Positions 253-21,796 of a stretch of 25,624 bases of DNA are shown piece after piece. This DNA is from Promethearchaeia archaeon (GTDB taxonomy: Archaea; Asgardarchaeota; Lokiarchaeia; Sigyniarchaeales; SOKP01). Numbering within the stretch: the stretch's first letter is position 1; every line of letters begins with the position of its first letter. The stretch spans positions 1 through 25,624 of the forward strand of contig JAWOCD010000058.1 of the NCBI GenBank assembly GCA_046483985.1, written 5' to 3'. The notes beneath the pieces were generated by a model. It searched no databases. It had not been told where the DNA came from and saw nothing but the letters and a program-made list of their open reading frames with translations. The position numbers and the translations under genes were made by a program.

Positions 253-300
253 TTGAAGTCTCCCCGCCCTAAAGGGCGGTGTTTTCTTTTGCCGTCTATG
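253..300 (-). mobile_element. 48-nt single-hairpin IS200/IS605-type mini-element, copy A
   Basis: Minus strand reads TTTAT|CATAGACGGCAAAAGAAAACACCGCCCTTTAGGGCGGGGAGACTTCAA. Hairpin CCGCCC-TTTA-GGGCGG, ends in TCAA, TTTAT target at 301-305. 265-305 matches 21691-21731 at 40 of 41 nt. Confidence 0.8.
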
Positions 301-527
301 ATAAAAATCTACAGATCCCCAAGTACATAAGAAAAAGTTTAACAGAGCAAGATTTAGAGAGAAAGCAATTATCCACATATCATGATCTAATGAAAGAGCT
401 ATTTCCAATAACACTCTGGGGAGACATATGTATTTATTGATTCCCGTCTTATTTATACAAAAATTCATTTGAAGTAAAACATTATTTATTTTATATAGAA
501 TATCAACTCACTTGGGTTAATTCCCTA

Positions 528-2390
528 ATGGAAAAAGTTTACTTAGTTGATTACGATCTCTGCACATTACGATTTTGTAATCGAATTTGCATTCAAAAAT
601 GTCCCATCACACTTTCTAACAAAAGAAAGAAACAGCATGAGAAAAAAGATGAAGTACCAATTTATCTAAAGAAATCGACAGAACAGATACGAATTAATAA
701 CGAAATCTGTTTAAAATGCGGTGCTTGTGCAAATGTATGTCCGAATAGTGCAATCTACGTAAAACATCTTCTCGATGAACCCAATAATCTCGAGCCCACC
801 CATCAATATTCGGGTGCAGAGAAAGGATTTAGACTTTATAATTTACCAACTCTAGTAGCTGGACAAGTTACGGGGTTATGTGGTCCAAACGGAATTGGAA
901 AAACTACGGCATTAGATATTCTTGCGGGAAAATTAAAACCTAATTTTGGAGAATCAAATAAAAAGGACTCTGATATATCATGGGAAACGGCAATTAATAA
1001 CGTAAAAGAACGAGAAATGCGAAACCATTTCATTGCATTATCACGAAATGAACGCAACGTTGCCTATAAACATCAAGTTCTTAAGATCTTATTCCAAAAA
1101 TACAAAAATCAGCAAGTGCAAAATATTTTAAACGCAGAAAACGAGGTAAGTAATGAATTTTTTGAAAAAATCTTGAATCATTTAGATATCAATTCAATTG
1201 CTAACCGGAAGCTTACACAATGTTCTGGGGGTGAATTACAACGCTTCGCTATAGCATCTACTCTAACAAAAGAAGCGGACATTTATATTATAGATGAACC
1301 TTGTACTTTTCTCGATGTGAGAAAAAGAATAGATCTTGCTCGTTTATTCCGAAAACGAGCACAAGGATTTGATCAAGAAAGACCATGTCCTGTATTAGTA
1401 GTAGAGCATGATCTAGCTATATTAGATTATGTGTCCGATATTATTCAACTTTTTTATGGAATACAGCACAAGTTTGGAGTTATATCCAGTCCCATTACAG
1501 TTAAGCAGGGGATAAACTCCTATCTAAACGGATATCTCCAATATGAAAAGCTACAATTTAGAGATACAAGTTATAAATTTCGGAAATCCACCACCGGACG
1601 TCGATGGAGTAACGCCAAAATATTCGCTAAATTCGGAAAAATGTCGAAAACTTTCGATTCCTTTAAACTTGAAGTCGAACCCGGTATCATTTACGCCACT
1701 GAAATTTTGGGAATTGTTGGGGAAAATGGCTGCGGAAAGACTACTTTTGCAAGGATTCTTGCCGGCGATTTAGAGCCTGATTCCAGCTCAGAATATCACG
1801 GTATTCCGGCAGCGGTTTCCTATAAACCCCAATATATTACCCAAAAGTCTGATCAAAGAGTGAAGGATTTCATCACCGAACGATCATATAATTATAATTT
1901 CTCACCTGATTTCATACAATTGCTCTATAAACCATTGGGTGTGGATAAGCTTCTCGATCATAGAATTTCAGGCTTGTCGGGTGGCGAATTACAGCGCGTA
2001 TACATTTGTGCTTGTTTGGCAAAAAAGGCTGATCTTTATATTTTAGACGAACCATCCGCGTATTTGGATGTGGAAGAGCGCATAAAGATTGGGCAACTGA
2101 TTCGAACCATCAGTAAAAAGTCGAATGCCGTGGCAATCGTGATCGAACACGATCTTCAGATCGCAGATTCATTAATAGATAGACTATTATTATTCAAGGG
2201 AAAACCTGGAGTGTACGGTAAAACAGTTGGTCCATTGACTAAAAAAAAAGGAATGAATGAATTTCTCAAGATTTTGGATATCACGTTTAGAAGAGATCTA
2301 AAAACGGGACGGGCAAGGTTAAATAAAAAAGGCTCAAAAAAAGACAGAGAGCAAAGAAAAAAGGGTCATTGGTGGGGAATAAAAGATTAA
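528..2390 (+). CDS. rli: ABCE1/RLI ribosome-recycling ABC ATPase with N-terminal 2x[4Fe-4S] domain
   Basis: Cx4Cx3Cx3CP (CTLRFCNRICIQKCP) and Cx2Cx2Cx3CP (CLKCGACANVCP). Two ABC domains: GPNGIGKTT/SGGELQR/IIDEP/VEHD and GENGCGKTT/LSGGELQR/LDEPSAYLD/IEHD. C-terminal hinge TFRRD..TGR.R.NK..S..DREQ. Confidence 0.95.
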   Translation: MEKVYLVDYDLCTLRFCNRICIQKCPITLSNKRKKQHEKKDEVPIYLKKSTEQIRINNEICLKCGACANVCPNSAIYVKHLLDEPNNLEPTHQYSGAEKGFRLYNLPTLVAGQVTGLCGPNGIGKTTALDILAGKLKPNFGESNKKDSDISWETAINNVKEREMRNHFIALSRNERNVAYKHQVLKILFQKYKNQQVQNILNAENEVSNEFFEKILNHLDINSIANRKLTQCSGGELQRFAIASTLTKEADIYIIDEPCTFLDVRKRIDLARLFRKRAQGFDQERPCPVLVVEHDLAILDYVSDIIQLFYGIQHKFGVISSPITVKQGINSYLNGYLQYEKLQFRDTSYKFRKSTTGRRWSNAKIFAKFGKMSKTFDSFKLEVEPGIIYATEILGIVGENGCGKTTFARILAGDLEPDSSSEYHGIPAAVSYKPQYITQKSDQRVKDFITERSYNYNFSPDFIQLLYKPLGVDKLLDHRISGLSGGELQRVYICACLAKKADLYILDEPSAYLDVEERIKIGQLIRTISKKSNAVAIVIEHDLQIADSLIDRLLLFKGKPGVYGKTVGPLTKKKGMNEFLKILDITFRRDLKTGRARLNKKGSKKDREQRKKGHWWGIKD

Positions 2391-2440
2391 TAGCGTAGAA
2401 ACAAATTTTCGGTTTCAAAATTTATGTTCGATTCTCCTCA

Positions 2441-2458
2441 AAAACAAAACCCTTTATA
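2441..2458 (+). promoter_or_regulatory. Putative archaeal promoter (A-rich BRE region + TTTATA) for a likely leaderless transcript of 2481..4454
   Basis: AAAACAAAACCCTTTATA; TATA at 2453-2458 lies 22 nt before the ATG and no SD sequence is visible. Confidence 0.45.
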
Positions 2459-2480
2459 GTTACTTCCTTTTTTTGTATTT

Positions 2481-4454
2481 ATGGTTTCGGTTAGAAAAGT
2501 CTTGTTAATCCCCTTTTTTCTTGGAATTGGATTAGTGGGAGAAGCTTTAATTTTTAGATTCTTTTTAATTTCCCCATATAGGGATTTTATTGGGACATCA
2601 GAGGGAATTGTACGTTTTAATCATTCGGTCATAATACTCATTTTCTTAAAAGGCTTTTTCTGGCTCGGAATTACCTTGATTGCAACCACTATATTTTTAT
2701 ATCTCATGTTTAGCCTCAATCCAGAAAGAGTTTTGGATCTTGCTTCAAACAAAAATAAACCATTTATTCTGATTCTTTTAACTTTAATCATTATTGTCAC
2801 TTATTTAGTTATATATCCGCCATTCTGGGTTCTTGGAATAATTTCAACTCTTATATTATCGATCTTACTTTGGTCTCAAACAAATATATTTAAAACAGGA
2901 AAAAATAGGGTTAAATCACTCACAGAAAAAGTAATAACTACAATTTCTAAGAAAAAGGTCTATTCATATTCATTTTATGGTTTTATTGGTTTTATCTTCT
3001 TTTATTTATTGGTACCCCTTCCGATACAACCGAGTAACCTTCCAAACCATGCAGGTGAAAATTATATCCAAAACGGACGGGTTTATGACAAACAAAATAA
3101 TCAAGAAGTGAGATTGATGGGGTGGGATTACCATTGGGTTCATTTCCACGGACCAGGGGAGGCTTGGGATGATTCGGCCGAAATGGAGAGATTCGACCTT
3201 GAGACCATCCGGCAAGATTTAATATGGGCATCTCAAGCTGGTAATTTTATTAGAATTTGTGCTAATTGGTTTGAAATCGAGCAAGAAAAAGGAGTATATA
3301 ATTATTCTACGTTAGATGCTGTATTTAATCTCATCGAGAATGATCCAGAGATAAATGATTTACACGTTTTATTAGAAATAGGACCAATTAAAACGAGTAA
3401 AATATGGGTACAAGCGTCTCTGCCAAAGTGGTTTCCATATCGCATTGATTTACAAGACCCTCATTTCCTCGAGAGGATAAAACCATTTTTAAACAAAACA
3501 ATCGAGAGGTATAAAGACAAAGATTCCTTATTTGCATACCAGTTGGAAAATGAACCAGACTTTTTGGTAACCACGGTAACAGATAACGATGAAGATTATG
3601 TCATTACTGGGGATGTAAATCAATATTTAACACGGCTTAACAATTTCGTCAAAGAAAGAGATTCTAACCACTTTACTTCCATTAACTTATTGGTAAACAA
3701 TCTATATCAGCAGAAAAAACTGCCCCCCGTGGATATTATTTTTTATGATTATTACGGGTCTATTGAAAATACAGCGCCTTTGCAAGATTATGCGCGCAAA
3801 TACTCTCAATATATTACTGGAAATACGGGATTTGGAGTAGCAGAGTTACAATTAAATAATTGGCATTATGAGATTACCCCCGAAATAATAGAAGAAGAAT
3901 ATCAATCATGTATAGAATCGGGTATGACTATGATTTTATGGAGTGAATTACATGATCCAGTGTGGTGGGATGGATCTGCCATTTCACCCGATAATATGCG
4001 AACAGAGAAATATTATAAAGTTCAGGAATTATATCAAAAGTTTCAAAATGAAGAAATAAATAGCAGTTTACTAGTTCAAGCCTCCTTCGATTGGCTAAAT
4101 GTGTTAATCTTTTTTTCTGTTATATCTGCAATGATATTTGTCTATTATACTGGTGAGGTGGTACTAAATAAGAGAAATAGGAAATATGAAGAAGAAAATT
4201 ATCTAAATCTTATTAATCCAACTCTTTGCTTTATCATAATTCCTTCGTTGGTGATTATATTTCCTTATATTTCCAACATACTTTTAGTGGGGATAGGAAT
4301 TTCTCTATTGAATTTAGTATTTAGCCCGATAATAATGAGCAATATCTTTCATAATAGATTTAAAAGAATGAAATACAAAAAAATAAAAGCATTAATTTTG
4401 GCAGTAAGTGCATCTATACCAACCGTTTTGCTGGGAATCATCGGATTCTATTAA
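2481..4454 (+). CDS. Multi-pass membrane protein with central clan GH-A (GH5/GH42-like) glycoside hydrolase domain
   Basis: About 5 N-terminal and 4 C-terminal hydrophobic segments. Central TIM-barrel-type motifs: NFIRI..W.EIEQEKGVYNY..LD, YQLENEP (acid/base), DYY, VAELQ (candidate nucleophile). Confidence 0.75.
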   Translation: MVSVRKVLLIPFFLGIGLVGEALIFRFFLISPYRDFIGTSEGIVRFNHSVIILIFLKGFFWLGITLIATTIFLYLMFSLNPERVLDLASNKNKPFILILLTLIIIVTYLVIYPPFWVLGIISTLILSILLWSQTNIFKTGKNRVKSLTEKVITTISKKKVYSYSFYGFIGFIFFYLLVPLPIQPSNLPNHAGENYIQNGRVYDKQNNQEVRLMGWDYHWVHFHGPGEAWDDSAEMERFDLETIRQDLIWASQAGNFIRICANWFEIEQEKGVYNYSTLDAVFNLIENDPEINDLHVLLEIGPIKTSKIWVQASLPKWFPYRIDLQDPHFLERIKPFLNKTIERYKDKDSLFAYQLENEPDFLVTTVTDNDEDYVITGDVNQYLTRLNNFVKERDSNHFTSINLLVNNLYQQKKLPPVDIIFYDYYGSIENTAPLQDYARKYSQYITGNTGFGVAELQLNNWHYEITPEIIEEEYQSCIESGMTMILWSELHDPVWWDGSAISPDNMRTEKYYKVQELYQKFQNEEINSSLLVQASFDWLNVLIFFSVISAMIFVYYTGEVVLNKRNRKYEEENYLNLINPTLCFIIIPSLVIIFPYISNILLVGIGISLLNLVFSPIIMSNIFHNRFKRMKYKKIKALILAVSASIPTVLLGIIGFY

Positions 4455-4550
4455 GATTTCTTTAATATTTCTGGGAAAGATGACGTATTTCATGATAGTG
4501 TAACCGTTGTCTAAACATAATTAGTTTCAATAATTCGGGGATATAATAGA

Positions 4551-5828
4551 TTACTTAACTTTTCTTAGTCGATAAATCATATCCACGATAGTGGTGGACA
4601 TTCCGAGCCCTCTTTCTCCTTCACCTTCACCAGTAAGAGGATTATGATACTCATAAATACCATTTTTTTTATACATCTCCACCCATCTGTTTAATATTTC
4701 ATTCGCTAACTGCTTATAATTATGGTTCAGTAATCCCTCCATTACTAACCAGGTGGTACATGGCCAAGTGGGGCCCCGCCAAAGTAATCTTGATTCATGG
4801 GGATCAAAGGTGGGTTCACTTTTCGCCGTGGAAGGAACGGGATATTGCAACCAAAATTTTTCATGGTTTTTTAGATTTCTCACTACTTGTTCTAAAATAT
4901 TATGAGGAAGGTTATCCAATAAGAGAGGGAAAAGCGATTGGACCGTTTCGATTTTTGAAACATATTCTCCAGATGGAGTATGGTAAAAGGATACAAACTG
5001 TCCTTCCTTCTCGCTCCAACATTTATCGATAATTGCGGAGGAAAATTTCTCTTGTTTTTCTTTGCACATTGCGGCAAGGTCAGGATCAAATTTCCTTGCT
5101 AAATCTCCCAGTTCCCCCCAGCCCGCAGCATACACACTATTTAGGCCCACATCTTCCACATTAAAGTAATTCATCTCTAAAATCCTGCTTAAATCCCATT
5201 CAGCTTTCTTTTTATATTTCCGAAGCGCGATTAAAAATTTTGGATAAAGTTGCCAAAAACTCGGGTCCTCAACCCCCCAAACAGGATCATAGAGCGGGCT
5301 TGCATCGATCCCAGATTCCCATGGATGAATAATAGAGACCAGACCATCATTGTCAGGATCTCGGGCTTCTTCCCACCATTCAAAGTAATTGATTAATTTG
5401 GGCACAAATTCCTCTGATAAATCCTTATTTTTAGTGGCGTTCCATATTGCTCGGACTGAATAGGCCAACATAGGCATTTGAGTAATATCAGTATATTTCT
5501 CATTGGAATAGCCGAAAAGCTTGTCCTTCAATTTAGCAAATAGTCCTGAGTGGTTTTCCCAAAAGATCATCTCCGGAATAAAGCCATTCGGTTTCTGAAA
5601 TTGGAGCATCGTGCGTAAATCCTTAACAGAATTATTCACATTGCGGTGGGCCCAGACGATCATATGCCATCCTGAGTCCCATAACCACTGGGATGATCCG
5701 TACTTAGTATTCGCTGGTTTGTAAAAGTGGTAAGGAAGTCCCCATCTCTTCCCAGAGACTTCATTTGATTGCAAATGGTTATAACATGCGTCTATTATCT
5801 CATCAACAGTCTTATAAATATAGTTCAT
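4551..5828 (-). CDS. GH63-like (MGH1-type, mannosyl/glucosylglycerate hydrolase-like) glycoside hydrolase
   Basis: QWLWDS, TQMPMLA, HPWESGIDASPLYD, LWRGPTW and EYHNPLTGEG motifs of (alpha/alpha)6 GH63/trehalase-like enzymes. Confidence 0.85.
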   Translation of the reverse strand: MNYIYKTVDEIIDACYNHLQSNEVSGKRWGLPYHFYKPANTKYGSSQWLWDSGWHMIVWAHRNVNNSVKDLRTMLQFQKPNGFIPEMIFWENHSGLFAKLKDKLFGYSNEKYTDITQMPMLAYSVRAIWNATKNKDLSEEFVPKLINYFEWWEEARDPDNDGLVSIIHPWESGIDASPLYDPVWGVEDPSFWQLYPKFLIALRKYKKKAEWDLSRILEMNYFNVEDVGLNSVYAAGWGELGDLARKFDPDLAAMCKEKQEKFSSAIIDKCWSEKEGQFVSFYHTPSGEYVSKIETVQSLFPLLLDNLPHNILEQVVRNLKNHEKFWLQYPVPSTAKSEPTFDPHESRLLWRGPTWPCTTWLVMEGLLNHNYKQLANEILNRWVEMYKKNGIYEYHNPLTGEGEGERGLGMSTTIVDMIYRLRKVK

Positions 5829-6027
5829 ATCTTTAATTATTATATTTTTATGAATATATTAGTTAATTTTATTATAAATAATTCCACCACAAAAATCCTT
5901 CAAAAATAAATTTATTATGTTTCCAATTTTCATATTCACTAATTTGGATTTGAATCGAAATCCTTAAATCCAATCCTTCATACTTTAAAATAAGGAATGA
6001 AATTAGTAAAAAGGTGTATGTTAAAGG

Positions 6028-6429
6028 ATGAGTAAAAAAATAGGAGTAACCGCGTGTACAGGAATGAATAAAGTTGAAGGTACTATAGCTAGAATGGCGA
6101 TATATAAAATATTGGAGGATTTAAATCCCGAAGAATCAATTTTAATTTGTCTTCCAGCTTTAGCCGGCGAAGTAAAAGAAGACGTGGATTTTGTGAGAGA
6201 TTATCCAGCAATAATATTAGACGGGTGTGAAAAAAATTGTGCATTAAAAGTATTTAAAAAATTCAAGAGCAATATTAAAGATGTTTTTAATGTCTCCGAT
6301 TATCTAAAAAAACATCCAGATCTCCATCCAACTTCTATAATAGATATAGATGTCGATGGAGAAAAATTGGCAGAGATTATCGCAGCAGATATTTCCAAAA
6401 GGATTAATGAGGTGTTGGAAAATGAGTGA
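6028..6429 (+). CDS. DGC-domain putative zinc-binding protein, copy 1
   Basis: ACTG, ICLP and DGCxxxC conserved cysteines; AGGTG SD-like sequence upstream. Confidence 0.85.
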   Translation: MSKKIGVTACTGMNKVEGTIARMAIYKILEDLNPEESILICLPALAGEVKEDVDFVRDYPAIILDGCEKNCALKVFKKFKSNIKDVFNVSDYLKKHPDLHPTSIIDIDVDGEKLAEIIAADISKRINEVLENE

Positions 6430-6820
6430 GAAGGTTGCTATCGTTGCCTGCACTGGAATGGGAAAATCTTTAGCTTCGGTGGGACGATATGCAGCTCTTT
6501 ATCTAACGTCCACGCTTCGCCCCGAGGATACGATTAATGTTTGCTTTCCTTGTACCGTTAGTGAAGATGAAGATTCTTTGGATCTGCTTAAAAATTACCC
6601 CGTCATAATTATCGATGGATGTGCAGAAATTTGCGGTAAAGAAATTTTATCAAAAATAAATTCAAATATAATTGCGCATTTAAAAGTGTGGAAAATCCTC
6701 GGTAAACATCTTGATTTAAAACCAGAATCTAGAGTTGATATTGGTGAAAAAGGGAGAGAATTAGCGCTGATTATCGCAGAAAAGATTGCAGAGAGAATTG
6801 ATGAATATAAAGGAATATAA
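6422..6820 (+). CDS. DGC-domain putative zinc-binding protein, copy 2 (start moved from 6350 to 6422)
   Basis: MSEKVAIVACTGM aligns with MSKKIGVTACTGM of copy 1. DGCxxxC present. GAGGTG SD upstream and ATGAGTGA overlap with the upstream stop suggest translational coupling. Confidence 0.85.
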   Translation: MSEKVAIVACTGMGKSLASVGRYAALYLTSTLRPEDTINVCFPCTVSEDEDSLDLLKNYPVIIIDGCAEICGKEILSKINSNIIAHLKVWKILGKHLDLKPESRVDIGEKGRELALIIAEKIAERIDEYKGI

Positions 6821-6869
6821 TACCTTTTATCCATTTCCCAAAATAGTTATGTTTTAAGCGATGTGCAAT

Positions 6870-6955
6870 TTGAACTAGTACGACCTAAAGAGCAATGGAT
6901 CTTAATGCATCACAAACTGCTCGGCTACGTGCATGACTCTTATAGATTCAGAACT
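6870..6955 (-). mobile_element. Decayed IS200/IS605 right end with upstream structured segment (possible omegaRNA/reRNA remnant)
   Basis: Minus strand ends ...GATCCATTGCTCTTTAGGTCGTACTAGTTCAA, with the same 20-nt TTTA-to-TCAA spacing as copies B and C, but the hairpin arms pair poorly. Inner boundary uncertain. Confidence 0.45.
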
Positions 6956-7139
6956 TTTTGAACATTAGGAAAATTTCCTTAAAGAAAAATCTAGAATTTT
7001 TTCACTTCAAAAAGATGATATTCCGTTTTATACCTTTATAGTATAAATTTTAAATCCTTATTAGTAGTCAATTATTATTAAATCAAATGAAAATTACTAC
7101 AAATTATATTAATTTGAAATCAAAAGAGTTAAGGTAAAA

Positions 7140-9929: not shown

Positions 9930-10069
9930 TATAACTATGATTTATATACATTACATTATTTGCCTTTTGGGCAGCAACTATTCGATATTTTGCACTTAAC
10001 ATTTTATACTTTTGCAATCGAAGTCAAAGACTTGACTGGATTATAAATTTAAGGGCTAAAAAGTGAATC

Positions 10070-10113
10070 TTGAACTAATCACGCTTAAAGGCGTGAGATT
10101 CACGTCATTTTTG
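10070..10113 (-). mobile_element. 44-nt single-hairpin IS200/IS605-type mini-element, copy B (different sub-family)
   Basis: Minus strand reads TTTAT|CAAAAATGACGTGAATCTCACGCCTTTAAGCGTGATTAGTTCAA. GAAT at the foot of hairpin TCACGC-CTTTAA-GCGTGA, ends TCAA, TTTAT at 10114-10118. Confidence 0.7.
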
Positions 10114-10125
10114 ATAAAAAAAAGT

Positions 10126-11538
10126 TTAAAGTTTATTAAAGTCCTTTTTAGCAGCTCCGCAGACAGGACAGACCCAATCATCGGGTATTTCTTTAAAAGA
10201 GGTTCCAGGCTCAATTCCGCCATCTGGATCCCCCTTCATTGGGTCATACACATACCCGCAAATAGAACATTTCCATTTACCGCCTAATTCTTCGCTCGTT
10301 TTTTCAATTTGTTTTCCTTCCATCTCTTTTTCTACCTCTCCTAATTCACGTTCTACATCCCTTTGAGGTAGATCAAATAAATTCGGCATGCCATGTTCAT
10401 ATTGTTTCCTAGCAAATCGAGAAATTACAATCCTTTGAATTTCGGAGGTTCCCTCATAGATTTGAAAGAGTTTAGCATCACGGAATAATTTTTCAACTGG
10501 ATAGGTTTTAATATATCCATAGCCCCCAAAAATTTGTATGGCTTCAGTTGTGACTTCCATTGCAACATCGGAGGCAAAAGCTTTTGCACATGCTGAACTT
10601 AAGTTATTATCCATCCCTTGGTCCGCTTCCCATGCAGATTTATAAGTTAATAAACGTGCAGCTTCAATGTCTTTGTACATTTCTGCGATTTTAAATTGAA
10701 TTGCTTGATATTTCCCAATCTCGCGTCCAAAAGCCTCCCGTTTTTTTGCGTAATCAATAGCATATTCCATTGCAGAACGAGCCGTACCAACGGCAAACGC
10801 TCCTATTGCGGGTCTTGTATGAGCAAAGGTCTGCATTGCTAATACAAAGCCTCTTCCAGGCTTAGCTAATACATTTTTTTTGGGAATCCGCACATCATTC
10901 AAAATAACTGATGTTGTATTTGATGCTCGCTGACCTAATTTGGGAATATGTTTTCCAACTTTAACACCATCAGTATCTGTAGGCACTATAAATGCGCAAA
11001 TACCTTTATGTCCTTTTTCTGGATCCGTAGTAGCGAAGAGAGAAATATAATCTGCAAATCCCCCATTGGTTATCCAATATTTATTTCCATTAAGAATATA
11101 ATCTTCCCCGTCTTTCTTAGCTCTACATTGCATTCCAGCCACATCAGATCCCATCCCAGTCTCAGAAGTTGCAAAAGCAATTAGCGTGAAATCATTTACC
11201 AATTCGGTTAAGATTCGCTCTTTTTGTTCCTTATTTCCTCCAATTATGATAGGTTCTGCACCTAAATTATTGTCAAAAATTGAAGTCGCAATTCCCGGAC
11301 ACGCAGCAGCAATTTCTTCCACCACGATTACAGACTCCATCAGTCCATATCCATTTCCACCATATTCTTTGGGGATAGATAAATTTAAAAGACCTTCTTC
11401 CCATGCTTTCTTGATGACTTCTATGGGCATACGTCCTTCTCTGTCATATGCAGAGGCTACAGGTAAAACTTCCTCAACGGCAAATTCTCGAGCTTCCTTT
11501 TTTAATTTTTTTTGTGTGTCTGTTAATTCAAAATTCAT
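10126..11538 (-). CDS. Acyl-CoA dehydrogenase with C-terminal rubredoxin domain
   Basis: ACAD motifs [50 protein letters not shown] charged linker is followed by [37 protein letters not shown]. Confidence 0.95.
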
Positions 11539-11758
11539 AATTTTAACCTCTAATTCAATTTTTTTATTGATATCTCAATTATTTAACTCTAAATGAGTTA
11601 TAATCTATTTTATCTGAAATTATGGAATCGATTATTTATAATATATTTGAAATTGGGTTTTAAACTTGCTTCTAATTTTTTATAAAATTTATATATAAAT
11701 CTGATTTTTGAGAATAAAAATAAGTTAGATACTCCTTGAAGATTAGATTGACAATTTT

Positions 11759-12484
11759 CTATTTTAAGAGGATTTTCTTAACCCATTTAGGAAATGCAAA
11801 ACCCATATAAAAAATTACAGAACTAATGACTAAAATTAGTCTGGAATAAATGTTTAAAATAGGTTTTTTGTAAAGTGCATCGGTCATGGCCCCAATAGTG
11901 AAAAAAATAAAAGCAACCATAAGAAGTTTTCCTTTTAATTTCACCTCTTGAACTTCAGATTTTATTGATTGAATAGAAAAGAGTAAACCAGTTATCAGAG
12001 CTTCAAGAACATAAATTATAAGAGTATAATCAATATAGTCAGATATGTAAAGATAGCCTGAAATTTCTATCCCTTTTTGAAGATCAATGAGATAAAAATA
12101 AATTAAGAATATTTCATAAAATATACTAAGAATAACGGTCAAAATAAGAATCAGTTTTCGGTAGTTTTCTCTTACATTTAACATCTTAGTAAAGGCAATC
12201 AACCAGAGAAGTACTGGTATCGGTAATATTACATTATTTACAATTAAGTTGAAGGTTATGATCCATAACTGCTTTTTATTTGGATCGATTAAAATATAGA
12301 GAGGAGTTAACGCATCGGGAATCCAAGGACTTGCGATCCCTATCCATGCGAGTCCCACTAAAAGAATACGCGGAGCCCCATATTTAAAATATTGGGAGAT
12401 GATTTTAAACCCAACAATAAAGGTGATCAAAACAAACGCTAAACTGATAAGTCCCAGAGTAATATCAATTAATTCTAAGGGCAT
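11759..12484 (-). CDS. 7-TM membrane protein of unknown function, paralog 1 (start moved from TTG 12496 to ATG 12484)
   Basis: Seven hydrophobic helices by eye; MPLELID aligns with MALELMD of the neighbour; 170/241 identical by manual gapless alignment. Confidence 0.85.
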   Translation of the reverse strand: MPLELIDITLGLISLAFVLITFIVGFKIISQYFKYGAPRILLVGLAWIGIASPWIPDALTPLYILIDPNKKQLWIITFNLIVNNVILPIPVLLWLIAFTKMLNVRENYRKLILILTVILSIFYEIFLIYFYLIDLQKGIEISGYLYISDYIDYTLIIYVLEALITGLLFSIQSIKSEVQEVKLKGKLLMVAFIFFTIGAMTDALYKKPILNIYSRLILVISSVIFYMGFAFPKWVKKILLK

Positions 12485-12536
12485 TCCTATTGGCAATTCC
12501 GATAAATCTCTCTAAGATGCTTAAGGATGAAAACAA

Positions 12537-12553
12537 TAAAAAATTTGACATTT
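12537..12553 (-). promoter_or_regulatory. Conserved 17-nt upstream motif (probable BRE/TATA) of 7-TM paralog 1
   Basis: AAATGTCAAATTTTTTA on the coding strand, identical to 13399-13415, about 50 nt upstream of the ATG in both genes. Confidence 0.55.
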
Positions 12554-12621
12554 TTGAAAAAATTACTTTTAAATATTTAAGAAAAACGGAACGGAGCAAG
12601 TAAAAAAAGAAAAGTGGAATG

Positions 12622-13350
12622 TTAGTTTTTTAAGAGGATTTTTTTAGCCCATTCAGGTAATATAAAACCTATATAAAACATAATGGAACTGACGTCCAAA
12701 ATCAGACGGGAAAATATATTCGTAATATCAGTTATATAAAGGGCATCAATAGTGGCTCCAATAGTAAATAAGATAAAAGCAATTATTAAAAATAACCCCT
12801 TTAACTTCACTTCTTTATCCTTTGATCTCAGTGATTCAATAGCAAAGATTAACCCAGTAATTAATGCCACAAGGATATAAATTATTAGGGTATTGTCTAT
12901 ATAATCAGATGAATAAAGGTATCCCGTAATTTCCATTCCCACTTGGATATCTGTGATATAAAAATATATGAGGAATATTTCATAAACAATGCTGAGGATA
13001 AATGTTATACCAATTATTATTTTTCTGAAATTTTCCCTAATCCTTAACATTTGAGTAAATGCAGTTAACCAAAGAAGTATCGGAATCGGTAATATGACAT
13101 TATTGATTATCAAGTTTAAAGTTACAATCCAAAGCTCGTTTTGATTTGGGTCGATTAATATATAGAGTGGTTTTAACGCATCTGGAATCCAAGGACTTGC
13201 AAGTCCGATCCATGCTAAACCCACTAAGAGAATTGTCGGTACCCTATATTTAAAATATTTAGAAATGATTTTTCCTCCAACAATAAAGGTAATTACAACA
13301 AACCCAGCACTAAAAAGTCCAAGAATAATATCCATCAATTCTAAAGCCAT
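12622..13350 (-). CDS. 7-TM membrane protein of unknown function, paralog 2
   Basis: Tandem duplicate of 11759..12484; shared ASPWIPDAL, NNVILPIP, YEIFLIYFY, EVKLKG, DALY, SRLIL. Confidence 0.88.
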   Translation of the reverse strand: MALELMDIILGLFSAGFVVITFIVGGKIISKYFKYRVPTILLVGLAWIGLASPWIPDALKPLYILIDPNQNELWIVTLNLIINNVILPIPILLWLTAFTQMLRIRENFRKIIIGITFILSIVYEIFLIYFYITDIQVGMEITGYLYSSDYIDNTLIIYILVALITGLIFAIESLRSKDKEVKLKGLFLIIAFILFTIGATIDALYITDITNIFSRLILDVSSIMFYIGFILPEWAKKILLKN

Positions 13351-13398
13351 GTATATTTCACATTACGATTTTTTTAAGCTTCTAAGTAATAAAAATTT

Positions 13399-13415
13399 TA
13401 AAAAATTTGACATTT
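13399..13415 (-). promoter_or_regulatory. Conserved 17-nt upstream motif (probable BRE/TATA) of 7-TM paralog 2
   Basis: Identical to 12537-12553 while the surrounding intergenic DNA has diverged. Confidence 0.55.
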
Positions 13416-13590
13416 CGGAAATTTAATTTCATTGAAAACATAAAAGCCAAACAAAGTGAAAGAGATTCTCTTAGATTATAAATAAAACGGATCCAATTAA
13501 TTTATTTCTAAAGTTATCCAAAAGGATCTTTGTTGTAAATATTCAATAAAAAGGTAAAATCTAAAAGATAATATTCATTATATAAGTAAA

Positions 13591-14940: not shown

Positions 14941-15098
14941 TAATAGATTATCCTATTTACTCCTTTTTACAGAATCGCTTATTTAGATTAACTCAATTTT
15001 CTGATTTTTTCATTAATTTATTTTAATCGTAAAATTTTAAAATTAAAATTATACTATAATAGCATATAGAATAACAATATAGGAGCAAATGAAATCTT

Positions 15099-15989
15099 AT
15101 GCAATTATTCAAAATTGATAACAAGGGAGCATTATCAGAATTAAATAAATTAGAATTTATAGAGGATGATGCTTACATAATAGATGATGAAAGTACAATA
15201 TATCTCTGGTTTGGAAACGAGATAAGCAAAAGGCAAAAAGATAAAGCAATTCAAAAGGCAAGAAAGTTGAATAAAGATCGGAATGGTTCGGCAAAATTAC
15301 TCTCCATGAAACAAAACAAAGAGTATGGATCCTTTATGGCTATGATGGACGATCTCCAGAATGGGATAAAAGAAGGGGATGTACCCAGAAGAGCCGAATT
15401 TAAACTTGACATTGACAAATCGAAAGAAATTGAGAAAAAGGAGAAACAGTCAGAAAAAAAGGAAATAGAGGAAGAAGAAAAGAAAAAAGAAATTATAAAA
15501 TCAGAGAAAAAAGAGAAACAGCCAAAGGAAGCAAAAGAAGAGGAAGAAGAAAAAGAACTTGGTGTACATCAATGGCTAAAACAACAACAAAAATATCGGA
15601 CAACAAAGGAAGAAAAGATAGAAGCAGGAAGTCAAAAAAAGGAACCTATACAAGAACCAGAAGAAGACACATCGAATGCTGTAGTTAGTCCGGAAACTAA
15701 AGTTCAAGAAAAGTCAACCGTGGAAAAAAAGGAAGAACCCGAGATGGATTTTGAAGAGGATGTAAAAACTGCCGCATATTTCGTCTCTCAAAAAGGACAC
15801 TCTTATGAGGACCTCTGCTATATCTTGGCTGAAAAAATAATCCTCGAACAACCTTTTGGATACGCATCTAAAGAACAAATTCGGAAAAAAGCGAAAGAGA
15901 TTTTTCACTCCTCTACCTCATATGACGAATTGTGCTGGCTTATCGGAGAAATGAATGTTTTAATCGAAACAAACTTTTACAACTTTTAA
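15099..15989 (+). CDS. Gelsolin-domain protein with E/K-rich linker and C-terminal helical domain (Asgard 1DGelX-like)
   Basis: Gelsolin core F.EDDAYIIDDESTIYLWFG...A..L......QNKEYGSF. About 120-aa charged linker. C-terminal internal repeat AYFVSQKGHSYEDLCYILAE / AKEIFHSSTSYDELCWLIGE. AGGAG SD upstream. Confidence 0.8.
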   Translation: MQLFKIDNKGALSELNKLEFIEDDAYIIDDESTIYLWFGNEISKRQKDKAIQKARKLNKDRNGSAKLLSMKQNKEYGSFMAMMDDLQNGIKEGDVPRRAEFKLDIDKSKEIEKKEKQSEKKEIEEEEKKKEIIKSEKKEKQPKEAKEEEEEKELGVHQWLKQQQKYRTTKEEKIEAGSQKKEPIQEPEEDTSNAVVSPETKVQEKSTVEKKEEPEMDFEEDVKTAAYFVSQKGHSYEDLCYILAEKIILEQPFGYASKEQIRKKAKEIFHSSTSYDELCWLIGEMNVLIETNFYNF

Positions 15990-16116
15990 TATTCTCCACT
16001 TTTTTAATTCTCTTTTTTTGTGAGTTTTTAATTCTATTTATTTTAATCATCAATTAAGAGCACGGTTTAACTAAATTACAAGGACTTAATTACAAGGATT
16101 TTTTATAGAGCTTATT

Positions 16117-17280
16117 TCATTCTTTCCGCGCGACATCCTTTATTCTAAACCAATGTTTATTCATTACGAGAAACCCAAGAACAAAAATGTAAAAAATTAA
16201 GAAAGCATATCCATATATATGTGATGATAATGAATACAAAAATATAATTAGCAACCACGCCGTCATAACTGCCGAGAAAGCACAAAAAGAAAGAAATAAG
16301 AGATCAGATTTAATTCGAATAATTCGTTTCCCGATGAAAAGAGCAAGAGAAAAGGAAATTGACATTGACAATACAAACGCAAAATTAAAGAAAAAAACGG
16401 ACTTAATGGGAACAAAAAGCAGACCAATAATTTGTAACGCTGAGATAATGAAAGTGAAAATAGTCAATACAAATATGATAAATATATCTAGGAGGAGTGT
16501 TTTGTAGGAAAATTGACTACTCTTATGTAAATTCTCTTTATAAAAATGATAGATGATTAAAATGATATTACTCAAAGCAAAAACAATAAAACTTGACAAT
16601 AGAACCAAGACAAAAGAGGCCCCATAAAGATAGAGAAATTCATTAACCGCTAAAATCTGAGGAAAGAATATTAAAACTGAAATTAAGTAGATCAGAATAC
16701 AAATAACGAGGAAAAGCTCGGAAAGGTTATTAGAAATAAGAAGATCTTTTTTAAAAAAAAAGTATGATAAAGATATATAAGCCAGAAGAAACACAGATAT
16801 GAATATAGCTCCGCTAAATCCTAAAATGAAGGAGATAAAGAGTACGGTAAAATAAATTTCCTCAAATTTTTCATTTGAAAGGTCAAAAGAGTTTGCTAAC
16901 TTTTCAAATTCCCTTCTACAGAGGGTAAATGAAACCAAAAACAGAACAAAAAAAAGCACCGAAGAGAGAGCTACAAATAGAGTAAATTTAAAGATTAATT
17001 TTCTCAAAAATAAATTCATTATTAATAGTGAAGTGGACGAGAAAACAAGTAGATTTTTAAAGGAAAGTGGGCTAGATCTCTCGGGAGAAGTATCAGCATT
17101 TTCCGTAAAGAAAATAGCGTCAGGAATATTAAGATAGCCAAGAAATAAAAGATAAGATACCGTTAAAAAGAGATACCCCATCATTTCATATTCAAAGAGA
17201 AACCAGAAAATCCCAGCTGTAATGGAAAGTAGAGAGAATATGGAACTCCAACCTGTTTTTGAGTTAAAATTTAGATTCAA
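16117..17280 (-). CDS. Polytopic membrane protein of unknown function (about 11-12 TM)
   Basis: Highly hydrophobic F/L/I/S-rich ORF; TTG start with GAGGT SD; 17 nt downstream of the phosphoesterase stop, so likely co-transcribed. Confidence 0.75.
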   Translation of the reverse strand: MNLNFNSKTGWSSIFSLLSITAGIFWFLFEYEMMGYLFLTVSYLLFLGYLNIPDAIFFTENADTSPERSSPLSFKNLLVFSSTSLLIMNLFLRKLIFKFTLFVALSSVLFFVLFLVSFTLCRREFEKLANSFDLSNEKFEEIYFTVLFISFILGFSGAIFISVFLLAYISLSYFFFKKDLLISNNLSELFLVICILIYLISVLIFFPQILAVNEFLYLYGASFVLVLLSSFIVFALSNIILIIYHFYKENLHKSSQFSYKTLLLDIFIIFVLTIFTFIISALQIIGLLFVPIKSVFFFNFAFVLSMSISFSLALFIGKRIIRIKSDLLFLSFCAFSAVMTAWLLIIFLYSLSSHIYGYAFLIFYIFVLGFLVMNKHWFRIKDVARKE

Positions 17281-17297
17281 TTAAGTTTAACCTCGAA

Positions 17298-19316
17298 TTA
17301 TAATAATTCAATAATATAGTTATCCAGAATGTCTTCCTTTTTTAGGGTCCACCCATAGGAAGTTTCTTTCAAATCGGTTTTTTCTATATCTTTTATATTA
17401 ATTTCACCCGGATTAAAAACAGAAATGGACATGAAGTTATCTGGGGCCGCGGGAGAAACTTGATTGATTTCGACTTCATATTCCGTTTCTGTGGAAGAGC
17501 AAGTACCAAATGATAAGTCGTCGCTCCAAATTAAAGGATCTTCATAGATCAGTCGAACAATCCCGGTTTTAGAACCATTTATCTGAGCTTTGATATTGAG
17601 CTTGTTCCTCATAAAGGAGTTCGAAACGGGAAAACTCTCTTTTTCATTATATCCCAGTCTCTGAGTAGAGGTAAACGGCTCCTCATTAATCATAATGGAA
17701 AAGTTCTCAATCTGAAGGGAATCATAATCTCGAGTTATTGACCATTCATCCAGATAGCAAGTCTCTTCACTTTTGGATTCCCATATGGTTTGTATAATCC
17801 ATGCATCTGGATCATCAGGTACTGTAAATTCTCCGTCATAACTTTGGTATGAGGCGTTTAGATCCAGATCCGTGAGTACTTGCTGTTCTGAAATTGTGTT
17901 TGAAATATTTTTTCCTAAGATCTTCACGGAAACATCCATCGGATCGGCAATATCTTTAGTTGCTTTTGCTTTTATTTCGAGTCGATAAGATTCCCCAGGA
18001 ATAGCTAAGGGAGTTGTTGAATCAGGAACTTTCCCTTCTTCCCATTTATCATACCACCCAATATGGACTTGATTTTCTAATACGGGAGAGATACTGCTCG
18101 CAAACGAATCTTTTCCCTTAAATTTTACCTCTCCCTCCGTATTTCCGTTATTATCATCATCTTCGTATCCGATCCAGTTTAAAAGAGAGTTTTCATAACC
18201 TTTCTCACCCCAATGGCTAAATTTTCGATTCTGTTCGATAAGCTCTGGATCAGAACCGATAACTTGTAAAGAATGATTTTTTGCCAAGATTCTATTATCC
18301 ACCCTAATCTCTTCCTTATCTTGTACCCGTTTTGGGACCGAATACCATTTAATCCCTTCATTCTTAAAGCTAGTTTTCATTTCCTTTTCAAAAAAAGTGT
18401 TGTTAACCCAGTCTTGTGTGAATACATCATATATACCCGCTCGTATTGAGTTTTCTGTTACTTCAAAATAAACTGTCCATGGTTTTCCCCCTTGAGTATT
18501 AGTTATACCAACATCTATACAATCTAATCCATGATATTGATAATGTTTAAACATATGATTATGACCATGGATATGCAACGCGATTTGAGAATTATTATTG
18601 ATAAAGGATTGCCACCATTCTTCATCATTATAGAACCTATAACAATTATCCTCTTCCTCTCTAGGGAATCCTTGATGGCTTACGGTAATGGTTGTTTTAT
18701 TGGGATATTGAGCGGTCATAAATTGTAGCCATTGTCGTTGTTCTTGTGTCAGCAGCATAGTTGTTCCTTGATCACCGAAGAATAAGAAAAGGATATCATC
18801 CCAGAGATATGCGTAATTTTGTTGCATTGTTCCCGTTACATTTTTTCCAGCTTCTATGGCCGAATACGGTTTATCATAAGTGTCAGTATCCGGTAGACCC
18901 CATCCATCACCGTAAATATCCTTTCCCGTATTGGTTTTGTAATTAGCAGTATCGTGATTACCAAAAAGAAACATCCAAGGAAATAAAACCTTATTAAAAC
19001 TCCCGCTCATCGCGGCGTTATAGCCCTCTGGCGTACCAAAATGTGTAAAATCTCCAAGATTAATGCCAAATTCTGCTCTTGGCAAGTTAGGATCATTCAT
19101 CCATGAATTTACAATCTCATCCGCGTACTGGTCCCCCCATCCGAAATGAGGATCCCCTATTGCTGTAAAAATTAGACTATCGGAAGAAAATTCCATTTTA
19201 GAATTCCTTTCGCGGATGTAACTAAACGGAATTAATAACGTTACACATAAGCCCGCGATAATTACCAAGCCTTCAAGTTTTTTCTGTTTGAGAGTGTTTT
19301 TTAGATTTCTCTTCAA
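17298..19316 (-). CDS. Membrane-anchored calcineurin-like metallophosphoesterase with C-terminal beta-rich (CBM-like) region
   Basis: Single N-terminal TM. GDPH, NLGDF, GNHD, SHQ and HGHNH metal motifs. C-terminal PGESYRLEIKAK...YQSYDGEFTVP...YLDEWSI is typical of galactose-binding-like jelly rolls (inference). Confidence 0.85.
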   Translation of the reverse strand: MKRNLKNTLKQKKLEGLVIIAGLCVTLLIPFSYIRERNSKMEFSSDSLIFTAIGDPHFGWGDQYADEIVNSWMNDPNLPRAEFGINLGDFTHFGTPEGYNAAMSGSFNKVLFPWMFLFGNHDTANYKTNTGKDIYGDGWGLPDTDTYDKPYSAIEAGKNVTGTMQQNYAYLWDDILFLFFGDQGTTMLLTQEQRQWLQFMTAQYPNKTTITVSHQGFPREEEDNCYRFYNDEEWWQSFINNNSQIALHIHGHNHMFKHYQYHGLDCIDVGITNTQGGKPWTVYFEVTENSIRAGIYDVFTQDWVNNTFFEKEMKTSFKNEGIKWYSVPKRVQDKEEIRVDNRILAKNHSLQVIGSDPELIEQNRKFSHWGEKGYENSLLNWIGYEDDDNNGNTEGEVKFKGKDSFASSISPVLENQVHIGWYDKWEEGKVPDSTTPLAIPGESYRLEIKAKATKDIADPMDVSVKILGKNISNTISEQQVLTDLDLNASYQSYDGEFTVPDDPDAWIIQTIWESKSEETCYLDEWSITRDYDSLQIENFSIMINEEPFTSTQRLGYNEKESFPVSNSFMRNKLNIKAQINGSKTGIVRLIYEDPLIWSDDLSFGTCSSTETEYEVEINQVSPAAPDNFMSISVFNPGEINIKDIEKTDLKETSYGWTLKKEDILDNYIIELL

Positions 19317-19485
19317 AAGGGTTTACCTTTAAGCATTATTATTTTTAATAAATAATCCAGGAAAATTTATAAATTTAAATGTCAATAATTTACCGTTTTA
19401 AAACTTGAATGATTTAAACACGGAGAATTTAAAAACTAAAAAAAATAAGATTTATGTAACTCTGAAAGGTCAACTTTGGTTAAAA

Positions 19486-20649
19486 TTAAAAACTTTTATA
19501 AGGAAATCGCTGCTTCTGGTGCTTTTTTTTCTTACCAAACGAGCGTTTTCTGATTTCTTTGTTAATAAACCCTTCAATTTTACATAAATATTCATATTCA
19601 TTTTTTAAACATAAGGTAATAGCAGTCCCTTTTTTATCCATACGGGAAGTGCGCCCAATGCGGTGTACATAACTCTCGGGATACTTTGGAAGATCGTAAT
19701 TAATAATATGTGAAATACCTTCAATATCCCAACCACGGGCAGCCACATCAGTTGCTATTAATATATCTATTTTATCGCTTCGAAAGTCACGTAAGATCTT
19801 CTCTCGCTTATTTTGAGAAAGATCCCCAGAAATATATCCCACATAATAAAATTTTCTTAAATATGAGGATTTCATTTTATTGAATAACCAATTTCCAGTT
19901 CGTTTCGTATTTATAAAGACAATTGCACTCTCGGGTCGTTCTCGGTTCAATACTTGACAAAATACATCAAACTTTTTATGAAAATCCGAAATCATATAAT
20001 AATATTGATTAGTATTTGTTACAGTTAAATCGTCTTTACTGATATCAATAAATTTAAAGGAATTTCCGGTATGTTCCTTTACAAGTTCCCTGATTTCATA
20101 TTCCATTGTTGCCGAGAACAAGAGAAATTGAAAATCGTGATTAATTTTGCTTAAGATATATTTAATATCGGGGAAGAATCCCATATCTAATAATCGATCT
20201 GCTTCATCCAGTACTAAGAAGCGGAGGTTATTGAACTTCAACTTACCTCGTTTGTAGAGGTCGATTAATCGTCCTGGGGTACCCACAATAATGTTGACTC
20301 CCTTTTTCAATTTCTTAATCTGTCGGTTGATCGATGTTCCCCCGTAAATCGTCATTGATTTGAGTTCATGATCTTTCAACTCTTGAACAACGCGATTGGT
20401 CTGTTTTGCTAATTCGCGGGTTGGGGCAATAATTAATACTTCATTATTCACAAATTTCAATTGCTCAATAATGGGCAATAAAAACGCTAATGTTTTGCCA
20501 GTACCCGTTTTAGATTGGGCCATCACATGTTTTCCCTTTAATACAGGAGGAATTGCTTCTTCTTGAACCTCGGTGGGTTCTGTAATTTCCATCTGTTCTT
20601 TCAAAATCTGCGTATATTTGTTGCTGATTCCTAAATCATCAAAATTCAT
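19486..20649 (-). CDS. DEAD-box RNA helicase
   Basis: Q motif (PTEVQ), TGTGKT, PTRELA, GG, TPGRL, LDEAD, FSAT, ATDVAARG, YVHRIGRT.R. Confidence 0.95.
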   Translation of the reverse strand: MNFDDLGISNKYTQILKEQMEITEPTEVQEEAIPPVLKGKHVMAQSKTGTGKTLAFLLPIIEQLKFVNNEVLIIAPTRELAKQTNRVVQELKDHELKSMTIYGGTSINRQIKKLKKGVNIIVGTPGRLIDLYKRGKLKFNNLRFLVLDEADRLLDMGFFPDIKYILSKINHDFQFLLFSATMEYEIRELVKEHTGNSFKFIDISKDDLTVTNTNQYYYMISDFHKKFDVFCQVLNRERPESAIVFINTKRTGNWLFNKMKSSYLRKFYYVGYISGDLSQNKREKILRDFRSDKIDILIATDVAARGWDIEGISHIINYDLPKYPESYVHRIGRTSRMDKKGTAITLCLKNEYEYLCKIEGFINKEIRKRSFGKKKKHQKQRFPYKSF

Positions 20650-20974
20650 ATTCTTTTCACAGTATATAAATGATAATTATCGTAAAATTTAGTTTACTAT
20701 ATTATCGTTGTATATTGTTTAATTATCAAATGCAGTCTTAAGTTAAAACAAAAAGATTTTCGTTCAAACAAACTTACATTTTATTTATAGATTAATACTT
20801 ACTAAGGATAAGGAGAAACCATAAATAAATCTTTAGATTTTTTTTAAAAACTCTAAGAAGTAATTGTTTATCAAAAATGAATCTTGTAAATTCAAGAAAA
20901 ACGAAAAAGCACCGATATTCTAAAAAATTGTAAGAAAAAAAATATTTATAATAAAAGATTTAAATTTTTAAAAT

Positions 20975-21115
20975 TTAATCTTCCAGCTTTTCAAACATAT
21001 CCTTTCCTACTCCACAGACTGGGCAAGTCCAATCATCCGGGAGATCTTCAAAGGGTTTTCCTTCTTCGTTTTCATCATAAATATAGCTACATGCAGTACA
21101 TTCCCATTTTGCCAT
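20975..21115 (-). CDS. Short-chain rubredoxin, 46 aa (absent from the ORF track)
   Basis: Manual translation [46 protein letters not shown], with CxxC.Y.YD ... [14 protein letters not shown]. Confidence 0.95.
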
Positions 21116-21193
21116 TTTTTTTACCACTTATTTGATATTTTTGCTTTTATTTTTATGAAGTCTAAATTCTTATCTAACTTGAATCTTAATCTA

Positions 21194-21460
21194 TTGAACT
21201 ACTCCCGTGAAATTTTTATCTTCTAATACGTGATCAGTACATTAGACAATATAAGTTGGTTTTCCAACCGTAAATCAAGGTTCTACTTCTTTTTAGAATG
21301 ACGAACTATATTAAAGCTAAGGTAGGTATTAATCCGAAGTATTGTATAATTATAAACTAGATATTGACCTATTTAAAAATAATGGTCTTACGATATTTAG
21401 TGTTTTAAACGTAAAAATTCATCTCCATCCTAAAAGATGTATGTTTCTTTTGCTTTTTTG
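21194..21460 (-). mobile_element. Degenerate non-autonomous IS200/IS605-type element (about 267 nt) with left end and partial right end
   Basis: Left end TTTAT|CAAAAAAGCAAAAGAAACATACATCTTTTAGGATGGAGATGAATT at 21460 shares GCAAAAGAA with copies A and C. Right-end tail CACGGGAGTAGTTCAA at 21194. Possible tnpA scrap V*NTKYRKTII at 21378-21410. Confidence 0.5.
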
Positions 21461-21679
21461 ATAAAACCTTTTAAATATCTTTCTAATTTCCCTTCATAAC
21501 AGAGTTAAAAGATATTTAATCTAATTTAGCTAAGATGCTTTTGGATCTCCGACATACCTAACACTTGTAATCCTCATCCATATCCCAGAACGGGATTTCT
21601 TGTTATTTATCTTTATGGAGAAATTGATGGAGTTATATATTAGATTTATTTTTATTTTATTATTCAGACATTATGTTAT

Positions 21680-21726
21680 TTGACCTACCACGCCCTAAAG
21701 GGCGGTGTATTCTTTTGCCGTCTATG
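21680..21726 (-). mobile_element. 47-nt single-hairpin IS200/IS605-type mini-element, copy C
   Basis: Minus strand reads TTTAT|CATAGACGGCAAAAGAATACACCGCCCTTTAGGGCGTGGTAGGTCAA. Near-identical to copy A; similarity stops just past TTTAT on one side and at TCAA on the other. Confidence 0.8.
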
Positions 21727-21796
21727 ATAAATCAAGAAAATATAATATTTAAATACATAAAGAGAGAATTCTAATTAAAGGAAAAAGTTTAGGAAA

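Follow-up and report, generated by a model that had tools for sequence, protein, structure and literature searches.

What are the short hairpin units that lie on the minus strand of contig JAWOCD010000058.1 of a Promethearchaeia archaeon? The contig, C11 of the host assembly G000 (4.06 Mb, 35% GC, 128 contigs), was analysed over its whole length of 25,624 nt, here called the window. An initial annotation had described three such units, A, B and C (Table 1), as one family of IS200/IS605 mini-elements carrying both cut sites around a single hairpin, and all three were recovered at the positions and on the strand it gave. We conclude, with a probability of about 0.6, that A and C are scars of IS608-like elements whose core was lost by repeat-mediated deletion, only the termini being left. 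Unit B is a comparable relic of another insertion sequence (IS) type, a right end without a usable left site.

Anatomy of the units and their fit to the IS608 rules

Units A and C both follow TTTAT and have in common the first 17 nt, a GC stem with a TTTA loop and the final TCAA. From TTTAT through the hairpin they agree at 40 of 41 positions, and their tails differ, as had been annotated. The proposal that left-end and right-end signals surround one hairpin was also borne out, as the halves of the two units match the left-end type c and the right-end types 1 (A) and 2 (C) described below. Unit A has the guide AAAA and the end ACTTCAA, and its tail is identical to the right end RE1, which has about 40 copies. 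Unit C has the guide AATA and retains GAAT one base off the hairpin foot, as in genuine type 2 right ends; thus its junction lies further left than in the other single-hairpin units (stubs). The tail of C ends in GTCAA, and the whole segment from GAAT through the hairpin and tail is identical to a right end in the relative G022. The overlap of AAAG with GAAT that had been read into this copy was therefore discarded: GAAT is the right-end guide of a variant which the relative also has. Folded as single-stranded DNA, the hairpins have energies of -5.7 to -7.9 kcal/mol (-7.9 for unit A), and the pairing of the stem is kept by compensatory changes across end types.

In IS608 each cleavage site is recognised by a guide tetranucleotide at the hairpin foot: AAAG for the left site TTAC, 19 nt away on the 5' side, and GAAT for the right site TCAA, 10 nt away on the 3' side. 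Recognition involves the base pairs C-3:G-35, T-4:A-34 and A-1:T-32, to which the dinucleotide just 3' of the foot contributes base triplets (PMC3201880). In A and C, TTAT is found 19 nt 5' of the foot (18-19 nt in the family), and in all three units TCAA is found 8-9 nt 3' of it. Genuine right ends in this genome have the guide GAAT and the end TCAA; the stem is followed by AT in full left ends and by AG in right-end type 1, as in IS608. Both spacings are similar to those of IS608 and ISGst2, and the left motifs TTAC and TTTAT, the right motif TCAA, the guides AAAG and GAAT and the dinucleotides AT (left) and AG (right) are features that the ends in this genome have in common with these elements, as is the covariation of guide and target.

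This covariation is observed in three left-end types. In type a the target is TTAC in 40 of 48 copies and the guide AAAG in 42 of 48; type b has the target TTTA (39/46) and the guide AAGT (45/46), and type c the target TTAT (12/12) and the guide AAAA (11/12). The last base of the guide is always complementary to the last base of the target. The same guide-target covariation, together with a TTTAT motif, is known in ISGst2 (PMC10055086). Given the covariation and this precedent, TTTAT serves A and C both as target and as motif for cleavage on the left.

One hairpin means one guide. GAAT is present in B and C, and A and most other family members have GAAA or AAAA instead. Thus in most copies the single guide specifies the left site alone (AAAA for TTAT), and the guide for the right site TCAA is lost. 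The description of the units as carrying both cut sites can therefore be kept only in part: the motifs TTAT and TCAA are there, but with a single guide, and in most copies the right site has no GAAT, so that the presence of two sites does not imply that both are cleavable.

The boundaries were assessed by joining the flanks of each unit and searching the joined sequence against the genome. One precise empty site was found, for a family member other than A, B or C. This unit (C45:4887-4938) lies exactly between a motif ending in TTAT and ACTATAT, and a paralog in contig C87 (near 66448), which has CTAT there, is uninterrupted at that point within an intact open reading frame (ORF). Since the paralog reads straight through, the element starts directly after TTAT and ends with TCAA, without target duplication, which is the behaviour expected of IS200/IS605 elements. 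The copy of this ORF in C45 is disrupted by the stub and no longer matches downstream of it. The initial annotation had looked to orthologous loci for such sites; the one found is paralogous, and none was readable at orthologous loci.

Unit B has the layout of the other two, which was the ground for placing it in the same family, but its sequence is different and its homology to other copies is confined to the last 33-36 nt, the terminus of right-end type 3. It falls outside the A/C family, as its guide GAAT fits TCAA and not TTTAT, and the spacing from TTTAT to the hairpin is 16 nt, as against 18-19 nt in the family. The origin of positions 10103-10113 is uncertain. These 11 nt resemble the start of the type 3 left end, and B may be a fusion with it, but the 11-mer is also common by chance (91 occurrences against 30 in the reversed control), too weak a signal to decide between the two. 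Unit B is best described as a solo right-end terminus.

Table 1. Positions of the units and of other IS200/IS605-related features in the window
Feature	Position	Strand	Description
Unit A	253..300	-	48-nt terminal-only element: part of left-end c, one hairpin, tail of right-end 1
TTTAT beside unit A	301..305	-	Target and left cleavage motif (transposon-associated motif, TAM), host-side sequence
Unit B	10070..10113	-	10070 to ~10102: terminal hairpin of right-end type 3 with TCAA tail, guide GAAT
Unit C	21680..21726	-	47-nt terminal-only element: ~17 nt of left-end c, variant of right-end 2
TTTAT beside unit C	21727..21731	-	TAM
Palindrome-associated transposable element (PATE), type 3	21194..21460	-	Gene-less IS200/IS605 derivative, ~267 nt, both ends kept
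Right-end remnant	6870..6946	-	Decayed, ends in TTCAA

Copies in the host genome and in a second genus

The genome contains further copies, as the initial annotation had anticipated. A 36-nt core common to A and C occurs 10 times at up to 3 mismatches, and its reversed control not at all. The first 24 nt of left-end c have 16 copies, and about 17 copies of the start can be counted if one with a more diverged start is included. Ten of these are single-hairpin units of 42-48 nt ending in TCAA, four have a normal left-end continuation and three break off early. The single-hairpin units comprise roughly the first 25 nt of an IS608-like left end, one hairpin and the final 8-12 nt of a right end. 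Neither tnpA nor tnpB was found behind the four continuing copies (in C8, C41, C94 and C69). The structural pattern TTTAY, 24-25 nt, CCTTTAGGGCG, 5-8 nt, TCAA has 7 matches here, 17 in G003, a genome of another genus, and 1 in G014, and its control has none in 121 genomes. Such recurrence of core and pattern, against zero matches in the controls, shows that the A/C family is not due to chance.

Copies of the hairpin word CCTTTAGGGC number 87 in the genome and sort into several right-end and left-end types. Right-end type 1 (about 40 copies) is found behind tnpB. Type 2 has about 7 copies, all truncated at the 5' side and without a partner left end. The stem deviates slightly in type 3, whose 12-nt guide-plus-stem word GAATCTCACGCC occurs exactly 18 times, unit B included. 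Left-end type b has approximately 46-55 copies, with a Y1 tnpA behind it in the full ones. Units A and C have left-end type c as their left half. Right-end 1 accounts for the tail of A and right-end 2 for the tails of C and most other family members, and the unit at C24:31964 has a tail similar to type 3. In their right halves the units match genuine right-end termini behind tnpB remnants without a difference. Three stubs at different loci are identical at 47 of 47 positions.

The genome has 15 matches to tnpA and 26 to tnpB, and every tnpA alignment found is truncated, frameshifted or interrupted. There are hundreds of decayed ends of IS200/IS605 elements. The assignment of the units to IS200/IS605, and more exactly to IS608-like elements, was thus upheld: related ends, tnpA and tnpB are all present in the same genome, and the geometry fits.

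In full left ends (e.g. G000:C41:50330-50391, L125:1500-1570) a second, outer helix surrounds guide and hairpin. Its two strands covary from one end type to another (e.g. GGCAAAA/TTTTGCC, GTGCGA/TCGCAC, CACCA/TGGTG), and its 3' half is lost in the single-hairpin stubs.

A relation between a parent and its products was observed in G003. One left end has 22 copies in that genome: 21 single-hairpin units of 46 nt and one full left end (L125) with tnpA and tnpB behind it. All the stubs stand behind TTTAC in unique intergenic flanks. Thirteen of the 21 are identical, and two variant bases are each common to two loci, the divergence being about 1%. The guide GAAT is present in the right ends that share the tail of the stubs (L128-L130). 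L129 has exactly the 20-nt palindrome of the L125 left end, from which L128 and L130 deviate by one base each. L125 cannot be tied to its own right end, since the locus ends inside tnpB. Judged by sequence, the 46-nt unit is the exact product expected of a deletion between two 20-nt repeats. An exact relation of this kind is confined to the G003 family; of the full tnpA/tnpB elements with matching ends that the initial annotation had envisaged, one was found for the left end of the G003 stubs and none for left-end c. Two stub loci of G003 were compared with three congeners, and no precise junction could be read, as the intergenic DNA differs by larger indels.

The genus of the host itself is represented by one genome. 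The nearest relatives have approximately 73% identity in coding DNA, and nothing can be aligned between genes. No match to left-end c was found in 120 genomes of the family. Scans of metagenomes and GTDB gave six chance matches, all of them without a hairpin. A public exact-protein look-up of the gene beside unit C gave no match.

Copies of right-end 1 and left-end b, shortened by internal deletion or truncated on one side, grade into one another without a gap, two-ended derivatives of about 160 and 100 nt among them. Internally deleted copies as a whole range from full elements through lengths of about 270, 160 and 100 nt to single-hairpin stubs. The type 3 derivative at 21194..21460 shows the intermediate stage of decay: it lies between TTTAT and a final TTCAA, part of its right hairpin is missing, and it has about 12-29 related copies in the genome. 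The remnant at 6870..6946 has one related copy elsewhere. Stubs made of left-end b and right-end 1 number only 3-4; their palindromes are less alike, and they have different junctions, as expected for independent deletions in place. The most similar palindromes thus go with many stubs (21 in G003, about 10 here) and the least similar with few (3-4), which also agrees with deletion between repeats.

A pair of near-identical loci bears on unit A directly. Positions 1-343 of the window and the end of contig C45 (G000:C45:81774-82116) have flanks that are 98% identical, with different chimeric elements between them. Both versions have TTTAT on one side and a common right flank on the other. In the window these enclose unit A, and in C45 a unit with a type 2 tail, then 16 nt ending in TTTA, then a type b derivative with an odd end. 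The pair may go back to a recent duplication or to heterogeneous strains in the assembly, and different elements within shared flanks point to rearrangement in place. Unit A would be the expected product of a deletion between the palindrome of a C45-like unit and that of a neighbouring type 1 right end. We infer this origin, as the two versions are not interconvertible in one step.

Several arrangements of the same ends were seen in passing. Tandem 54-nt units consisting of part of left-end a, one hairpin and a right-end 1 tail occur at G000:C125:1-150 and G000:C127:1-300. They look like products of unequal exchange between a right-end hairpin and the adjacent left-end hairpin, the reciprocal of the deletions. 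At G000:C85:35011 and G000:C98:24971 there are 24-nt copies in which the first 19 nt of left-end b are joined to TTCAA without a hairpin. For the right ends truncated at the 5' side, an origin by cleavage at pseudo-left sites was considered and dropped, as their junctions have no common motif.

Origin of the single-hairpin units

The origin that we favour for A and C is the one the initial annotation had offered as a scar of recombination between two hairpins, and it corresponds to the published terminal-only PATEs (PMC3119063). Single-strand "peel and paste" transposition would place a full element or a gene-less PATE on the 3' side of TTTAT. The palindromes at its two ends would be nearly the same sequence in direct orientation, and replication slippage or recombination between them would delete everything in between. 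The remainder would be a left tip with its guide, one hybrid hairpin and a right tip ending in TCAA. The anatomy of the units, the relation of parent and product in G003 and the series of deleted copies are all in agreement with such an event. This deletion mechanism is proposed by analogy with strain comparisons in Haloquadratum walsbyi, where complete elements in one strain correspond to 52-bp forms in the other and the palindromes are repeats of 22 bp or 19 bp (PMC3119063).

Several observations weigh against this origin. No full element with left-end c was found in the assembly, and a parent of A and C has to be postulated, since none appeared in the 120 family genomes or in the metagenome and GTDB scans either. 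No site was found at which a close strain keeps the full element. Left-end c is joined to three right-end tails (1, 2 and 3-like), so that a single parent would not be sufficient without further recombination. Finally, the composition of the G003 family, with 21 stubs to one full left end, 13 of them identical and some with shared variants, also resembles a burst of the stubs themselves.

The last point leads to the possibility that the single-hairpin units are non-autonomous transposons, for which TnpA acting in trans would cut to the left of the hairpin at TTAT or TTAC and to its right at TCAA, with a single hairpin and guide for the two reactions, somewhat as TnpA(REP) acts on the hairpin of repetitive extragenic palindromic (REP) sequences. 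We regard this as possible but doubtful. Near-identical stubs in unique flanks behind a uniform TTTAC, against a single full left end, are what a mobile G003 unit would leave, and the two pairs of loci with a common variant base point the same way. In the present genome the three fully identical stubs lie at different loci and no parent is left. Haloquadratum provides six strain-specific insertions that all have the 52-bp form (PMC3119063), and TnpA(REP) does cleave both upstream and downstream of REP (PMC3333891). However, the synaptic complex of IS608 needs both ends with their own guides, and removal of the right guide or site abolishes it (PMC3201880). In ISGst2, scrambling either end prevents excision, and the left guide refuses the right-end motif (PMC10055086). 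Most stubs have AAAA or AAAG, which fits the left site but not TCAA, and the two bases 3' of the stub hairpin are of the right-end type, not the AT needed at a left end. All copies of tnpA in this genome are disrupted. Moreover, a high ratio of stubs to parents is equally expected if the collapse of 20-nt repeats is fast relative to mutation, and a divergence of about 1% among the G003 stubs corresponds to time enough for full elements to transpose in the ordinary way and collapse afterwards. Collapse in place and stub mobility are not mutually exclusive. With no intact tnpA found and most stubs devoid of the right-end guide, the stubs of this genome are most likely inert scars.

Selection of the units as host regulatory elements, such as terminators or insulators, is very improbable. 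On the plus strand the hairpin is followed by a T-rich run, and A, C and part of B were picked out on that strand in a scan for terminators. On the minus strand, B together with its right flank (window 10050-10118) forms an extended stem in which GTGAATC pairs with GATTCAC, followed by five T (-10.7 kcal/mol, z = -4.0), directly after the stop codon of a gene for an acyl-CoA dehydrogenase with a C-terminal rubredoxin domain (10126-11538, minus strand). However, no plus-strand gene ends upstream of A or C, and the G003 units have no comparable T-run. The host is an archaeon, as the plus-strand gene at 528-2390 encodes the ribosome-recycling ATPase RLI/ABCE1 (633 bits, above the equivalog cut-off), and in archaea hairpin-dependent termination is not the rule. 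The terminator reading was ruled out by gene context and the archaeal host. As for other regulatory roles, the left-end sequence is absent from the 120 related genomes and hence not conserved, and the stub at C45:4887-4938 sits within a paralog of a coding sequence and disrupts it.

If A and C are products of core deletion, as we conclude, this deletion may amount to a TnpB-proof loss of the transposon. The stub would hold the TAM and the guide-matched flank 47 nt apart, and so the emptied site may never be cut by the homing nuclease. The side remark of the initial annotation, that the insertion may interrupt the junction of TAM and target recognised by TnpB, follows logically from this separation. 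Such a role is compatible with mobility of the stubs.

Related elements and neighbouring features

The closest known counterparts are the 52-bp terminal-only PATEs of H. walsbyi, HqIRS46 and ISHwa23 (Dyall-Smith et al. 2011, PMC3119063). Like the units described here, they are gene-less IS605-type sequences of about 50 bp in an archaeal host, with fused termini around one near-terminal palindrome and no target duplication. The direct repeats between which they were deleted, 19-22 bp, are comparable to the 20-nt repeat of the G003 parent. The differences are in the host, a low-GC archaeon and not a haloarchaeon, in the sequences of the elements, and in the chimeras of one left end with three right-end types. 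In addition, the formation event was caught between strains in Haloquadratum but not here. Thus the units belong to an established class, the terminal-only PATEs, and the host lineage is new for it. What is new is that the guide logic can be read, since the ends are IS608-like, and that the 21-copy G003 family has an autonomous parent.

The stubs are set apart from complete IS608 and ISGst2 elements by having one hairpin, one guide and no genes in 42-48 nt, as against 1.3-2 kb, and from two-ended PATEs by length, the latter being approximately 100-270 nt. REP sequences mobilised by REP-associated tyrosine transposases (RAYT, TnpA(REP)) are likewise short single-hairpin repeats related to IS200/IS605 ends, with an enzyme able to cut on both sides of the hairpin (PMC3333891). 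However, the stubs occur in 10-21 copies per family, in tens and not hundreds, and are dispersed singly. They have no conserved 5' tetranucleotide of the GTAG type, which is described as required for binding in REP systems, and carry IS608-type guides at the foot. No inverted pairs of the kind seen in bacterial interspersed mosaic elements (BIME) or REP doublets forming hairpins (REPIN) were observed among the stubs, and their termini are those of ordinary IS608-like elements.

In our interpretation the stubs would illustrate the way in which IS200/IS605 and TnpB elements come to an end, the palindromes of their two ends collapsing into one, and haloarchaea, in which this process was first seen, would be joined by a second archaeal lineage. 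For annotation this suggests that hairpins of this kind, about 45 nt long, should be treated as transposon scars, and not as terminators, REPs or regulatory sites. The mobility of stubs was left open in the Haloquadratum study (PMC3119063), and the G003 family provides a convenient natural set of substrates for the question of one-hairpin Y1 transposition, open since 2011. If the stubs do prove mobile, few known transposable elements would be smaller, and they would represent a living link from IS200/IS605 elements to REP/RAYT repeats.

A scan of the window detected no known RNA families and no tRNAs. Apart from the rubredoxin domain encoded next to unit B, the window contains a separate rubredoxin gene of 50 amino acids (aa) at 20975-21127 on the minus strand, and another IS copy, in contig C66 near position 700, adjoins a rubredoxin-like ORF. 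The window also contains two adjacent segments of about 800 nt (11762-12559 and 12628-13421) with ORFs of 245 and 242 aa, each of which has one further copy in the genome.

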